Source: Escherichia coli
Lineage (GTDB): Bacteria > Pseudomonadota > Gammaproteobacteria > Enterobacterales > Enterobacteriaceae
Assembly: GCF_003334355.1 (NCBI RefSeq)
Contig: NZ_QOWP01000019.1
Strand: one strand, 5' to 3'
Length of the DNA: 64,000 nucleotides
The notes below the pieces were generated by a model, which was given only the letters and a program-made list of their open reading frames with translations, had not been told where the DNA came from and did no database searches. Positions within the stretch are counted from its first letter, which is position 1. Every line of letters begins with the position of its first letter. Of this stretch, positions 14,060 through 46,578 are shown one piece after another. The position numbers and the translations under genes are program-made.

Positions 14060-14093
14060 GCCGGATGCGGCGTTAACGCCTTATCCGGCCTAC
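14060..14093. repeat. REP element
   Basis: gccggatgcggcgttaacgccttatccggcctac, classic REP palindrome between convergent barA and gudD. Confidence 0.8.
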
Positions 14094-14178
14094 AAAACCA
14101 ATTAAATTCAATGAATTAAAAAATGATGTAGACCTGATACATAGCACAACAGGCTATTTTGCGTTTAGCATCAGTCTC

Positions 14179-14210
14179 AAACCGGCTCCAGATAGAGCCG
14201 GTTTTGGTTT
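14179..14210. terminator. Hairpin terminator between barA and gudD
   Basis: aaccggctc-cagata-gagccggtt followed by T-rich tract. Confidence 0.55.
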
Positions 14211-14216
14211 TCTGTC

Positions 14217-15557
14217 TTAACGCACCATGCACGGGCGCTTGTTATCGAACGTCCAGCCAGGAATCAGATACTGCATTCCCATCGCATCGTCACGCGCGCC
14301 AAGCCCGTGTTTCTGATACAGCTCATGGGCTTTCATCACTTGATCCATATCGATTTCTACACCCAGCCCCGGTTTTTCTGGCACCTGTACCAGCCCGCCT
14401 TTGATCTCAAACGGTTCTTTGGTCAGGCGCTGATTGCCTTCCTGCCAAATCCAGTGCGTATCAATAGCAGTAATTTTACCCGGTGCAGCGGCGGCAACAT
14501 GGGTAAACATCGCCAGGGAAATATCGAAGTGGTTGTTAGAGTGTGAACCCCAGGTCAGGCCAAATTCATGGCACATTTGCGCCACACGTACCGAACCTTG
14601 CATTGTCCAGAAATGCGGATCCGCCAGCGGGATATCAACGGATTGCAGGGAGAGCGTATGGCCCATTTGCCGCCAGTCGGTGGCGATCATATTGGTTGCA
14701 GTCGGCAGACCTGTCGCGCGACGGAACTCTGCCATCACTTCACGCCCGGAGAAACCTTGCTCCGCACCACACGGATCTTCTGCATAAGCCAGCGAACCTT
14801 TCAGGTATTTACCGATTTTAATCGCTTCGTTCAGCGACCAGGCACCGTTAGGATCGAGCGTAATACGCGCCTGCGGGAAGCGTTGCGCCAGTGCCACAAT
14901 AGACTCGGCCTCTTCTTCCCCGGCCAGTACACCGCCCTTCAGTTTGAAATCGTTGAAGCCATATTTTTCATATGCCGCTTCCGCCAGGCGCACCACCGCA
15001 TCCGGCGTCATCGCTTCTTCATGACGCAGGCGATACCAGTCGCATGAGTCATCCGGCTGGCTTTGATACGGCAGCGGCGTGGCTTTGCGATTACCGACGA
15101 AGAACAGATAACCGAGCATTTCGACTTCGCTACGCTGTTGACCATCGCCCAGCAGCGATGCCACGTTTACCCCCAGATGCTGCCCCAGCAGATCCAGCAT
15201 TGCCGCTTCTATCCCGGTAACTACATGAATAGTGGTACGTAGGTCAAATGTCTGCAAACCGCGCCCACCAGCATCACGATCGGCAAAAGTATTACGCACC
15301 AGCGTCAGAACGTTTTTGTATTCACCCAGCGTTTTACCTACCACCAGCGGAATCGCATCTTCCAGCGTTTTACGGATTTTCTCGCCGCCGGGAATTTCCC
15401 CTACGCCAGTGTGACCAGAATTATCTTTGATAATCACAATATTACGCGTAAAGAACGGTGCGTGTGCACCACTCAGATTCATCAGCATACTGTCATGACC
15501 CGCCACCGGGATAACCTGCATTTCAGTAACAACAGGCGTCGTAAATTGAGAACTCAT
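14217..15557 (-). CDS. gudD: Glucarate dehydratase
   Basis: ORF 14217..15581; enolase-superfamily sequence from [25 protein letters not shown] (446 aa from internal Met). Confidence 0.95.
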
Positions 15558-15577
15558 ATTTATGTCCTTTTTCAGAA

Positions 15578-16918
15578 TCAATGACGGCCGAAAACGGGAC
15601 GTTTACGGTCAAAGGTCCAGCCGGGGATCAGGTACTGCATCGGACCTGCGTCGTTACGCGCACCGCCAGGCAGACGTTTATAGGCCTCATGTGCCTTTTG
15701 TACCTGTTCCCAGTCCAGTTCCACGCCCAGACCGGGCGCATCAGGAACGGCAATTTTTCCGTTTTTAATCTCCAGCGGATTTTGGGTCAGGCGACAATCG
15801 CCCTCCTGCCAAATCCAGTGGGTATCGATAGCGGTAGGATTACCCGGTGCCGCCGCGCCCACATGGGTAAACATCGCCAGAGAGATATCGAAATGGTTAT
15901 TAGAATGGCAGCCCCAGGTCAGCCCCCAGTCGTCGCAAAGCTGCGCCACACGGACTGCACCGGAAAGCGTCCAGAAGTGCGGATCGGCAAGTGGAATATC
16001 TACCGCATTGAGCATCACCGCATGACCCATTTCGCGCCAGTTGGTGGCGATCATGTTAGTCGCGACGGGCAAGCCGGTCGCCCGTCGAAATTCCGCCATC
16101 ACTTCACGTCCGGAGAAGCCCTGTTCTGCGCCGCATGGATCTTCGGCATAGGTAAGAACATCATTCAGCCCTTTGCATAAAGAAATGGCTTCATCAAGCA
16201 GCCATGCACCGTTGGGATCAACGGTAATCCGCGCATCCGGGAAGCGTTTCTTCAATGCACGAACAGTGTCGATTTCTTGCTCGCCAGGTAACACGCCGCC
16301 CTTAAGTTTGAAATCTTTAAAGCCGTAGCGATCCTGTGAGGCTTCCGCCAGACGCACAACGGCTTCGCTGTTCATTGCTTTCTGATGCCGCAACTGATAC
16401 CACTCATGGTTGCCCGGCGTATTTTCCACATAAGGAAGATCGGTTTTGGTCCGATCACCGATATAAAACAGATAACCGAGGACGGTAATAGCCTCGCGTT
16501 GCTTGCCTGGCCCTAACAGTTCGCAGACCGGAACATTCAGCGCCTTACCTAGCAGGTCAAGCAAAGCGGCTTCCAGCGCCGCCACGGCGTTAACGCGTAA
16601 TTCAAAGGTCCAGGCACCTTTACCGAAGGTATCAAAATCGGCGGCCTGATTACCTTTATGCACCTGCTGGACCACTTTATTCAGTCGCGCAACTTCCTGG
16701 CCCAGAACCATCGGAATAGCATCGACAAGCGTCTGATAAATCACATCTCCGCCCGGCGCTTCACCAATGCCGGTATGCCCGGCGTTATCGGTGAGTACCA
16801 CAATATTGCGGGTGAAATATGCGTTATGTGCCCCACCAATATTAAGCAACATGCTGTCATGCCCGGCCACCGGAATGACTTTCATATCAGTAATAACAGG
16901 ACTGGATTGTGTCGCCAT
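15578..16918 (-). CDS. gudX: Glucarate dehydratase-related protein
   Basis: ORF 15578..16933; [24 protein letters not shown], close paralog of gudD directly upstream. Confidence 0.93.
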
Positions 16919-44962: not shown

Positions 44963-45149
44963 GCCTCTCCCGAGCAAAAGAAATCTAAGCTGTGTAACAA
45001 GTAAACGACTAATTTGACCGGAAACTTTAGCGAAAGACGCATAATCTGTCATCTAATAAACGGTAAACATTCTTTTTATATTCACGGCATTACTGATAAA
45101 AAAGTCGCTCTCGCATAAAATTTACACTTGCACCCTGCGAAAAAACAGA

Positions 45150-45190
45150 ATAAAAATACACTAATTTCGAATAATCATGCAAAGAGGTGT
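45150..45190 (+). promoter_or_regulatory. Candidate ARG-box region overlapping the argA promoter
   Basis: acagaataaaaatacact and ttcgaataatcatgcaa resemble the TGAAT(A/T)4ATTCA ARG-box half-sites, just upstream of the argA start. Confidence 0.45.
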
Positions 45191-45193
45191 GCC

Positions 45194-46525
45194 GTGGTAA
45201 AGGAACGTAAAACCGAGTTGGTCGAGGGATTCCGCCATTCGGTTCCCTATATCAATACCCACCGGGGAAAAACGTTTGTCATCATGCTCGGCGGTGAAGC
45301 CATTGAGCATGAGAATTTCTCCAGTATCGTTAATGATATCGGGTTGTTGCACAGCCTCGGCATCCGTCTGGTGGTAGTCTATGGCGCACGTCCGCAGATC
45401 GACGCAAATCTGGCTGCGCATCACCACGAACCGCTATATCACAAGAACATACGTGTGACCGACGCCAAAACACTGGAACTGGTGAAGCAGGCTGCAGGAA
45501 CATTGCAACTGGATATTACTGCTCGCCTGTCGATGAGTCTCAATAACACGCCGCTGCAGGGCGCGCATATCAACGTCGTTAGTGGCAATTTTATTATTGC
45601 CCAGCCGCTGGGCGTCGATGACGGCGTGGATTACTGCCATAGCGGGCGTATCCGGCGGATTGATGAAGACGCGATCCATCGTCAACTGGACAGCGGTGCA
45701 ATAGTGCTAATGGGGCCGGTCGCTGTTTCAGTCACTGGCGAGAGCTTTAACCTGACCTCGGAAGAGATTGCCACTCAACTGGCCATCAAACTGAAAGCTG
45801 AGAAGATGATTGGTTTTTGCTCTTCCCAGGGCGTCACTAATGACGACGGTGATATTGTCTCAGAACTTTTCCCTAACGAAGCGCAAGCGCGGGTAGAAGC
45901 CCAGGAAGAGAAAGGCGATTACAACTCCGGTACGGTGCGCTTTTTGCGTGGCGCAGTGAAAGCCTGCCGCAGCGGCGTGCGTCGCTGTCATTTAATCAGT
46001 TATCAGGAAGATGGCGCGCTGTTGCAAGAGTTGTTCTCACGCGACGGTATCGGTACGCAGATTGTGATGGAAAGCGCCGAGCAGATTCGTCGCGCAACAA
46101 TCAACGATATCGGCGGTATTCTGGAGTTGATTCGCCCGCTGGAGCAGCAAGGTATTCTGGTGCGCCGTTCTCGCGAGCAGCTGGAGATGGAAATCGACAA
46201 ATTCACCATTATTCAGCGCGATAACACGACTATTGCCTGCGCCGCGCTCTATCCGTTCCCGGAAGAGAAGATTGGGGAAATGGCCTGTGTGGCAGTTCAC
46301 CCGGATTACCGCAGTTCATCACGGGGCGAGGTTCTGCTTGAACGCATTGCCGCTCAGGCGAAGCAGAGCGGCTTAAGCAAATTGTTTGTGCTGACCACGC
46401 GCAGTATTCACTGGTTCCAGGAACGTGGATTTACCCCGGTGGATATTGATTTACTGCCCGAGAGCAAAAAGCAGTTGTACAACTACCAGCGTAAATCCAA
46501 AGTGTTGATGGCGGATTTAGGGTAA
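45194..46525 (+). CDS. argA: N-acetylglutamate synthase (GTG start)
   Basis: ORF 45128..46525; 443 aa from (GTG) [36 protein letters not shown]. Confidence 0.95.
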
Positions 46526-46537
46526 GCGACGAAAATC

Positions 46538-46578
46538 GCCGGATGCGACATGCGTAACACTCGTGCGTCGCATCCGGC
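46538..46578. repeat. REP-like palindrome between convergent argA and recD
   Basis: gccggatgcgac...gtcgcatccggc, perfect 12-bp arms. Confidence 0.75.

Follow-up and report, generated by a model that had tools for sequence, protein, structure and literature searches.

REP and BIME-1 elements, with decayed derivatives, at six intergenic sites of an Escherichia coli chromosome segment

Results

Palindromes in the queE-ptsP region

The DNA analyzed here (64,000 nucleotides, hereafter the window) belongs to the E. coli chromosome and spans queE to ptsP. An earlier note had flagged REP-type palindromes at six of its gene junctions (barA/gudD, xni/fucO, fucI/fucK, csdE/tcdA, tcdA/mltA and argA/recD), and all six palindromic sites were confirmed in place when checked. 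The E. coli REPs, or palindromic units (Stern 1984; Gilson 1984), are assigned here to classes y, z1 and z2 as in Ton-Hoang 2012. Coordinates of the units and associated features are listed in Table 1.

Table 1. REP units, BIME-1 elements and neighboring hairpins in the window (CM, covariance model)
Feature	Position	Strand	Context and remarks
Full-length BIME-1	14033..14168	.	barA 3' region, convergent junction; flank, y, L linker, decayed z1, flank
Canonical y REP	14060..14093	- (GTAG strand)	Plus-strand CTAC at 14090-14093; CM 62.7 bits
L linker, 34 nt	14094..14127	.	IHF-like core ATTCAATGAATTA; length and register as in tcdA/mltA and fepA/entD linkers
Decayed z1 REP, GTAGACCTGATACATAGCACAACAGGC	14128..14154	+	Absent from the earlier note
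Terminator-like hairpin with T run	14179..14204	+	10-pair stem, then TGGTTTTCTG; downstream of BIME-1
REP-derived palindrome	27989..28018	.	Fills the 54-nt xni/fucO convergent gap; single C/U mismatch, no GTAG
GC-rich hairpin, GCCCGGT..ACCGGGC foot	33553..33576	-	fucI/fucK spacer; different type; CM 13.9 bits, E 0.043
Perfect 11-bp palindrome, TAGCCGGATAA..TTATCCGGCTA	33596..33623	+	fucI/fucK spacer; tandem genes, one operon; GTTAG replaces GTAGG, no bulge
REP with variant foot GTCGGAT..ATCCGAC	41167..41202	+	Fills the 50-nt csdE/tcdA convergent gap; z2-like inner stem, no GTAG
mltA intrinsic terminator	42033..42055	-	Hairpin and UUUUUAAUU; downstream of BIME-1; left duplicate copy
Full-length BIME-1	42056..42192	.	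mltA 3' UTR, tcdA/mltA tandem junction; polymorphic insertion
Canonical z1 REP	42068..42096	- (GTAG strand)	CM 51.3 bits; identical to published z1 query GCCTGATGCGCTACGCTTATCAGGCCTAC
L linker, 34 nt	42097..42130	.	Rfam ES036 (RF02751) match
Canonical y REP, 5' GTAG	42131..42164	+	CM 64.7 bits; Rfam naRNA4 Y hairpin 38.2 bits
Right copy of 20-nt duplicated terminator hairpin	42198..42217	-	Shortened, no U tract
Perfect 12-bp palindrome, GCCGGATGCGAC..GTCGCATCCGGC	46538..46578	.	61-nt argA/recD convergent gap; 41 nt, 17-nt interior

A scan of the window for paired REP feet ([CT]C[GT]GAT ... ATC[AC]G[AG], spacing 4-36 nt) returned eight pairs, seven of which are the units reported here. All seven are intergenic, in a span whose intergenic share is 8.3%, and the eighth pair, at 53138 within ptrA, is attributable to chance; in 60 Markov simulations the number of pairs averaged 0.33 and never exceeded three. 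The core common to the units is GCCKGAT[GA]..[CT]ATCMGGC, with GTCGGAT..ATCCGAC at csdE/tcdA. The literal gccggatg...catccggc pair, on which the palindromes are built according to the earlier note, occurs at argA/recD (46538-46578) and at none of the other flagged sites. Counting the 8-mer GCCGGATG alone as evidence for REPs was rejected: it has 18 matches in the window versus three expected, four of them in REPs, and because the other 14 lie in coding sequence, where it corresponds to CCG-GAT, a frequent pair of codons, it is not diagnostic.

A CM trained on published and local REPs and run with filters off scored four units at 48-65 bits and the remaining ones at 14-23 bits (E-values over the seven units, 1e-18 to 0.05), and no further REP site with E < 0.2 was found in the window. 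Two additional candidates for decayed units were discarded, one at 36282-36310 that was unconvincing (CM only 10 bits, E 0.65) and one at 13387 that falls within barA. When folded as RNA on both strands, all seven units form stem-loops with a dG of about -20 to -30 kcal/mol (z -2.8 to -6.8) and a core stem of 9-12 paired positions. Stem pairing is 100%, and three of the 11 pairs differ at both positions between REP classes.

REPs are present at four of eight convergent junctions and at two of the 45 others (Fisher p = 0.003). The convergent bias described earlier is therefore real: the six unit-bearing junctions comprise four convergent, two tandem and zero divergent ones, which matches the published genome-wide split of approximately 60% convergent and 40% tandem. 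The earlier statement that, CRISPR aside, the REPs are the sole repeats of the window was nearly right, the exceptions being a 20-nt duplication (42036/42198) and, with 76% over 300 nt, the paralogous genes gudD and gudX.

The units differ in the features needed by the REP transposase. The GTAG tag is found in three of the seven (CTAC at 14090-14093 and 42093-42096, GTAG at 42131-34) and is missing at xni/fucO, fucI/fucK (GTTAG), csdE/tcdA (CCGG) and argA/recD. The two-mismatch bulge (GATAAG / CGCATC) occurs in both y units and the z1 unit and is absent at xni/fucO, fucI/fucK and argA/recD, whose stems are perfect or nearly so; tag and bulge are thus kept together in only three units. Copy numbers per genome are at least 40 for the y unit, 38-40 for BIME-1 and a median of 24 for the csdE/tcdA unit, while the xni/fucO, argA/recD and fucI/fucK units have a median of one at the sensitivity of BLAST. 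Comparison by CM, Rfam and published y/z1 sequences agrees with the REP-type identity proposed before, and, judged by sequence, the six sites hold E. coli REP/BIME family members together with derivatives that have decayed. The finding is correct but ordinary, as it is already known and nothing in it is new in kind. Catalogues of E. coli REP/BIME elements go back to 1984, and in K-12 about 355 such loci carry an annotation. The RefSeq copy of MG1655 consulted here (NC_000913.3) contains zero REP repeat_region features.

Two BIME-1 elements

The barA/gudD BIME-1 aligns over approximately 137 nt, non-palindromic flanks included, with the tcdA/mltA and fepA/entD copies, and BIME-1 copies from divergent Escherichia show 77-79% identity to 14033-14168 by BLAST. 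Its y unit scores 38.4 bits against the Rfam naRNA4 Y hairpin, is 95% complementary to 42128-42171 and agrees with published y sequences. The z1 unit of the window has lost its fold (z -0.77; CM E 7.7), and its O157:H7 orthologue is an intact z1 (GTAGGCCTGATAAGCGTAGCGCATCAGGC). The flanks of this BIME-1 and the decayed unit had been overlooked by the earlier note.

The tcdA/mltA BIME-1 is 89% identical to that of fepA/entD over 137 nt, flanks included. It is missing in UTI89, 2016C-3878, s961 and Citrobacter sedlakii, and the site is empty in about half of 5426 genomes. The Rfam ES036 match lies at 42089-42131 on the minus strand (46.5 bits versus a gathering score of 37.6). A natural IS621 target, ATCAGGCCTAC, is located at 42086-42096, inside the z1 unit. 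A direct repeat (42038-42055 / 42200-42217) flanks the element, and the empty-site genomes, C. sedlakii among them, contain a single copy of the hairpin. At the barA/gudD and fepA/entD BIME-1 elements, inspection by eye revealed no flanking duplication beyond 4-7 nt. It is conceivable, though quite doubtful, that a 137-nt unit was inserted here beside the mltA terminator hairpin via a hairpin-targeted replication/repair route. Should other BIME-1 loci with filled and empty alleles show the same footprint, a route unlike the canonical, duplication-free Y1 (HUH) transposition would be indicated, and hairpin-targeted insertion would help explain why BIME-1 elements are placed at transcription-unit 3' ends.

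Short convergent gaps and the fucI/fucK spacer

The xni/fucO palindrome is separated by 6 nt from the stop codon of xni and by 18 nt from that of fucO, scores 22.6 bits (E 7e-5) and is present in 4084 of 5426 genomes, one copy each. UTI89 and s961 carry a long allele, a 50-nt indel separating the two alleles, and the orthologous place in the divergent Escherichia L012 holds a GTAG-bearing REP. Because of this long allele and the L012 REP, we assign the unit a REP origin and classify it, at the sequence level, as a locally degenerated REP. The csdE/tcdA unit (CM 48.6 bits) has a bulge with one mismatch in the window (CTCATC) and the canonical CGCATC in other strains, and is a multi-copy REP variant. 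The argA/recD palindrome lacks both GTAG and the bulge (CM 14.3 bits, E 0.03), folds at -29.6 and -30.5 kcal/mol, and precedes AUUUUCG when read on the minus strand. In these three short gaps (50-61 nt), no hairpin other than the REP is present, and 5-18 nt separate it from either stop codon; the published distance limit for a translational effect of REPs is < 16 nt between stop codon and REP.

Two hairpins occupy the fucI/fucK spacer. The one at 33553-33576 (-19.6 kcal/mol, z -2.9) resembles, on visual comparison with the REPs tabulated in Nunvar 2010, a Citrobacter/Klebsiella-type REP. The palindrome at 33596-33623 (CM 13.8 bits, E 0.046; fold -19.9 kcal/mol, z -4.65) is found in 5425 of 5426 genomes, one copy each, with at least 99% identity in 4912. 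This palindrome and the argA/recD unit are best described as single-copy REP-like palindromes; descent from a REP is suggested by the common foot, the one feature that points to it.

Terminators and transcript 3' ends

The earlier idea that the palindromes serve as terminator surrogates fails at barA/gudD and tcdA/mltA, where separate terminator hairpins follow the BIME, and is plausible at xni/fucO, csdE/tcdA and argA/recD, where a terminator scan found no U-tract terminator. None of the REP stems was called as an intrinsic terminator, the calls falling on 14179-14204 (+) and 42055-42033 (-). The 3'-end mapping suggested as a check could be drawn from published Term-seq data. The major mltA 3' end (MG1655 2945855(-), window 42027; score 32337, not Rho-dependent) lies at the intrinsic terminator of this gene, and therefore the tcdA/mltA BIME is not a terminator surrogate. 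For csdE, a weak 3' end at window 41180 is located inside the 5' stem arm and not at the hairpin base. No 3' end falls at the remaining REPs among the ends listed, which may reflect low expression or an incomplete listing. The four REP-free convergent junctions have other hairpins (such as 2764-2797 and 43680-43709), each between A and T runs.

Discussion

We consider it very probable that a single account covers the six sites, combining REP/BIME membership, seeding by a REP-associated Y1 transposase and hairpin action at 3' ends. The units would have been seeded by this transposase system and tolerated hardly anywhere but in 3' untranslated gaps of transcription units. There they would be co-transcribed into the 3' ends of neighboring mRNAs, on both strands at convergent junctions, and hairpins of -20 to -30 kcal/mol would block 3'-to-5' exonucleases once downstream termination has occurred. 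REP hairpins may double as leaky, partly Rho-dependent attenuators, and those within 15 nt of a stop codon may damp translation of the upstream gene. The role of 3' stabilizer is the established reading of REPs and fits hairpins that are stable on both strands. According to the literature, REPs can block exonucleases on Rho-terminated transcripts and can also combine terminator and stabilizer roles, and Harris et al. reported no general half-life difference for REP-bearing genes. Stabilization, attenuation and translational effects at these particular loci would follow by extension from such work. The z1 decay at barA/gudD, the xni/fucO indel and the presence/absence at tcdA/mltA together indicate that individual copies are dispensable.

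The same polymorphisms lend some weight to the view that these sequences are largely neutral or selfish DNA, that is, RAYT-driven footprints that survive at 3' ends only because selection purges insertions elsewhere and that have no host function here. About half of the 5426 genomes are empty at tcdA/mltA, as is the outgroup site; the barA/gudD z1 is decayed in the window and intact in O157; xni/fucO shows the 50-nt indel and loss of GTAG; and transposase-required determinants are missing in four of seven units. We regard this view as possible but not favored, since the fucI/fucK hairpin is almost universal and highly conserved, stem pairing has been kept through changes on both sides, and the published deletion of another REP alters expression of its neighbors. 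It is also not exclusive of the main explanation. A role in DNA architecture, with IHF on the BIME-1 L linker and gyrase/Pol I on REPs relieving the positive supercoiling of convergent transcription, seems unlikely. The enrichment at convergent junctions, the two BIME-1 elements with conserved L linkers and an exact IHF consensus (TATCAACACATTG) in the long xni/fucO allele would suit it, and according to the literature IHF binds BIME-1 and gyrase BIME-2. Against it, the L linkers of the window lack an exact WATCAANNNNTTR, BIME-2 arrays, the type to which gyrase binds, are absent, one BIME-1 element of the two lies between tandem, not convergent, genes, and Harris et al. saw no role of their model REP in chromosome compaction.

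It is extremely improbable that the units are chance GC-rich hairpins or ordinary intrinsic terminators resembling REPs, even though three of them are single-copy, GCCGGATG is common in coding sequence and AUUUUCG follows the argA/recD palindrome on the minus strand. Seven foot-paired palindromes, all intergenic, far exceed the chance expectation; the CM E-values, the lack of U tracts after the xni/fucO and csdE/tcdA stems and the orthologous canonical REPs at the xni/fucO site also speak against it, and for five or more of the seven units the evidence already contradicts this reading.

For annotation, the REP/BIME account separates canonical copies that might still be mobilized from fossil hairpins, recognizes two sites as full BIME-1 elements, and places the BIMEs upstream of true terminators, not as substitutes for them. 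The natural alleles (tcdA/mltA filled/empty and xni/fucO long/short) offer near-isogenic contrasts for the effects of REPs on neighboring genes.

Comparison with known systems

Published E. coli y/z1 REPs agree in sequence, tag and bulge with the units at 14060-14093, 42068-42096 and 42131-42164, which are likewise extragenic and multi-copy. In its z2-type inner stem, its multi-copy status and, in other strains, its bulge, the csdE/tcdA unit is like the known REPs, but it differs in its GTCGG..CCGAC foot without GTAG; the xni/fucO, fucI/fucK and argA/recD units depart further, being single-copy and without GTAG and bulge. Like intrinsic terminators, the REPs are GC-rich hairpins at 3' ends, but their stems lack an adjacent U tract, except for the partial AUUUUCG at argA/recD (minus strand).

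BIME-1 elements correspond to RIB or RIP (Gilson 1991; Boccard & Prentki 1993; Oppenheim 1993). The tcdA/mltA junction has this arrangement in one copy, an inverse z1 (42068-42096, -) followed by y (42131-42164, +), and barA/gudD retains an intact y beside a z1 that is decayed in the window yet intact in O157. Both loci have the 34-nt L linker, aligning with that of fepA/entD, and conserved flanks in common with the fepA/entD copy. These flanks presumably correspond to the motifs named A and B. The two linkers differ from the known system in their IHF core: a consensus scan found no exact match to WATCAANNNNTTR in either, and the candidate cores ATTCAATGAATTA and ATCCAAAATATTG deviate from it by one and two mismatches, respectively, as counted by eye.

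With regard to the REPIN/RAYT system (TnpA-REP, yafM), the 20-nt duplication around the tcdA/mltA insertion is a difference, as IS200/IS605-type Y1 transposition is not known to yield flanking duplications. No RAYT or transposase gene is present among the annotated genes of the window, and the reported location of the E. coli RAYT (NP_414763) is another part of the genome. The inverted pairs of GTAG-tagged REPs resemble the proposed substrate of this system, and their polymorphism fits mobility.

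REP units and their placement

The window is Escherichia coli chromosome; positions 176-31172 share 99.3% identity with MG1655 2,904,004-2,935,000, and the window is near-identical to strain OW1E2. The gene map from queE to ptsP was carried over from annotated records, and the gene names in the earlier note agree with it. csrB and gcvB also lie in the window (Rfam).

A GC-rich palindrome is present, at the positions given, at each of the six junctions assigned REP elements in the earlier note (barA/gudD, xni/fucO, fucI/fucK, csdE/tcdA, tcdA/mltA and argA/recD), and the REP-type identification was upheld by a foot-pair scan, a covariance model (CM) and folding. 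Eight pairs of complementary REP feet were found in the window, against a mean of 0.33 in simulated sequences, and seven of them are the reported units; the eighth, within ptrA, was dismissed as a chance pair. All seven reported units are intergenic, while intergenic DNA makes up 8.3% of the span. The CM, built from published REP sequences (Durrant 2024) together with REP units from the window and other strains, was run over the whole window with filters off and returned exactly the reported sites, with no other hit below E = 0.2. Across REP classes, stem pairing is kept in 100% of cells, and 3 of 11 pairs are altered on both sides. The units fold on either strand, with free energies from -20 to -30 kcal/mol and z-scores from -2.8 to -6.8. 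REPs occupy 4 of the 8 convergent junctions and 2 of the 45 tandem or divergent ones (p = 0.003), which bears out the claim that they lie mostly where transcription converges and agrees with published proportions (about 60% convergent, 40% tandem).

Parts of the earlier description need correction. The pair gccggatg...catccggc, said to underlie all sites, occurs literally only at argA/recD. The 8-mer GCCGGATG is found at 18 sites in the window, in six-fold excess over dinucleotide shuffles; as it lies mostly within genes and, in our reading, spells out the common codon pair CCG-GAT, it is not diagnostic for REPs by itself. The CRISPR array is indeed repetitive (seven repeat copies, 185-579), but it is not the only other repetitive DNA, since the gudD/gudX paralogues had been overlooked, as had a 20-nt duplication at tcdA/mltA. 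An inverted repeat (35 nt, 77% complementary, arms 17 nt apart) was also observed between gudP and yqcA, on the upstream side of gudP (18583-18669).

Two BIME-1 elements

In the definition of Ton-Hoang et al., the palindrome of an E. coli REP is imperfect, carries GTAG on its 5' side and has a bulge of two mismatches, and BIME-1 pairs z1 and y units, inverted relative to each other, across a long, conserved L linker. The REP transposase needs both the GTAG and the bulge. The tcdA/mltA element is a textbook BIME-1, with non-palindromic flanks of 12 nt and 28 nt. Rfam lists ES036 (CssrF) among the sRNAs, but in effect this family represents the BIME-1 L linker and the first part of z1; its match at 42089-42131 (minus strand) is a repeat-element match, not evidence for an sRNA gene. 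The z1 REP also carries, at 42086-42096, an exact copy of the IS621 natural target ATCAGGCCTAC (Durrant et al. 2024), and three one-mismatch variants of this target are found in other canonical REP units. At barA/gudD, the palindrome had been recognized correctly, but a second unit, a decayed z1 (14128-14154), had been missed. Its folding is lost, while the O157:H7 orthologue is intact; the y unit is intact and matches the Rfam naRNA4 Y-hairpin, and each genome holds at least 40 places similar to it.

Features of the REP-bearing junctions and neighbouring DNA (window positions)
Feature	Position	Strand	Remarks
barA/gudD BIME-1	14033-14168		second BIME-1
barA/gudD terminator-like hairpin	14179-14204	plus	T run; beyond BIME-1
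gudD and gudX	14217-15557 and 15578-16918		tandem paralogues; 76% identity over 300 nt, offset 1364 nt
fucI/fucK first hairpin	33553-33576		GCCCGGT type; CM borderline, E about 0.04
fucI/fucK perfect palindrome	33596-33623		CM borderline, E about 0.04
csdE 3' end (Term-seq)	41180 (MG1655 2945008)	plus	weak; within 5' arm of csdE/tcdA REP
mltA 3' end (Term-seq)	42027 (MG1655 2945855)	minus	strong, not Rho-dependent; just past mltA terminator U tract, downstream of BIME-1
tcdA/mltA terminator-like hairpin	42055-42033	minus	T run; beyond BIME-1
tcdA/mltA full BIME-1	42056-42192		89% identity to fepA/entD BIME-1, flanks included
tcdA/mltA z1 REP	42068-42096	minus	part of BIME-1
tcdA/mltA L linker	between z1 and y		34 nt; ES036 match above gathering score
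tcdA/mltA y REP	42131-42164		part of BIME-1
Antisense 3' end (Term-seq)	42222 (MG1655 2946050)	plus	just past truncated hairpin copy

Variant and degenerate units

The csdE/tcdA REP lacks GTAG; its foot is compensated (GTCGG..CCGAC) and its inner stem is z2-like. Genomes hold a median of 24 places similar to it. Its bulge is canonical in other strains and partly closed in the window allele. The xni/fucO palindrome is single-copy, and its short allele, as in the window, is carried by 4084 of 5426 genomes. In UTI89 and strain 961, a long allele orthologous to 27983-28036 has an additional 50 nt and holds a z2-like REP along with an exact IHF consensus TATCAACACATTG. That REP keeps its GTAG in a divergent Escherichia (L012); the window copy is therefore a degenerated REP. 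The fucI/fucK palindrome is single-copy and near-invariant over 5425 genomes. The perfect argA/recD palindrome is likewise single-copy. Its arms resemble a junction between an inverted REP, contributing its 5' arm, and a direct REP, contributing its 3' arm, and it may be a collapsed BIME. At the convergent fucR/rlmM junction, a GC-rich hairpin GGTAGCAGGCCGG..CCGGCCTTG (36279-36310) without a T run fills the 43-nt gap; its REP-like score is weak (10 bits, E 0.65).

Strain polymorphism

In a set of 5426 E. coli genomes, about 53% carry the tcdA/mltA BIME-1. It is present in K-12, O157 and two divergent Escherichia (L011 and L012), and absent from UTI89, 2016C-3878 and strain 961. In these last three strains and in Citrobacter sedlakii, the empty site has a single terminator hairpin. 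In the filled allele, the intrinsic-terminator hairpin of mltA is directly duplicated over 20 nt, with one copy on either side of the element (42036-42055 and 42198-42217). Such duplications are not known as a product of HUH/Y1 transposition, and no comparable one was found flanking the two other BIME-1 copies examined.

Other differences between strains were also seen. The window has one initiator tRNA-Met gene (43559-43635), where MG1655, UTI89 and O157 carry a tandem array of three and strain 961 one of five. In some strains the DNA between the tRNA array and amiC holds islands: UTI89 has T6SS genes there, and both 2016C-3878 and 961 have a PTS/sugar cluster. Between fucA and fucI, a gene cluster (LacI-family regulator, FGGY kinase, ABC transporter) replaces fucP in some strains (strain 961, locus L008 17043-23250; also hit H86).

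Termination and transcript 3' ends

The palindromes had also been proposed as terminator surrogates. Published Term-seq data (Adams 2021, supplementary files) place three 3' ends in the csdE-mltA region. Given the T-run hairpins beyond both BIMEs and the strong 3' end at the downstream terminator, this proposal fails for mltA and probably for barA. Three of the convergent gaps are short (50-61 nt; xni/fucO, csdE/tcdA and argA/recD). In each of them the REP is the sole hairpin and no U-tract terminator was found, and there the REP may still act as a terminator surrogate. In these gaps the REP lies 5-18 nt from either stop codon, and five of the six distances are under the published limit for translational down-regulation (<16 nt).

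The REP/BIME finding in the window is correct and already known; the refinements gained are two full BIME-1 elements, the separation of canonical from fossil units, and the true terminators downstream of the BIMEs. In the literature, REPs are established as blocks to exonucleases on transcripts that end farther downstream, and as attenuators with a partial, Rho-dependent effect; both readings would fit the anatomy at the window loci.
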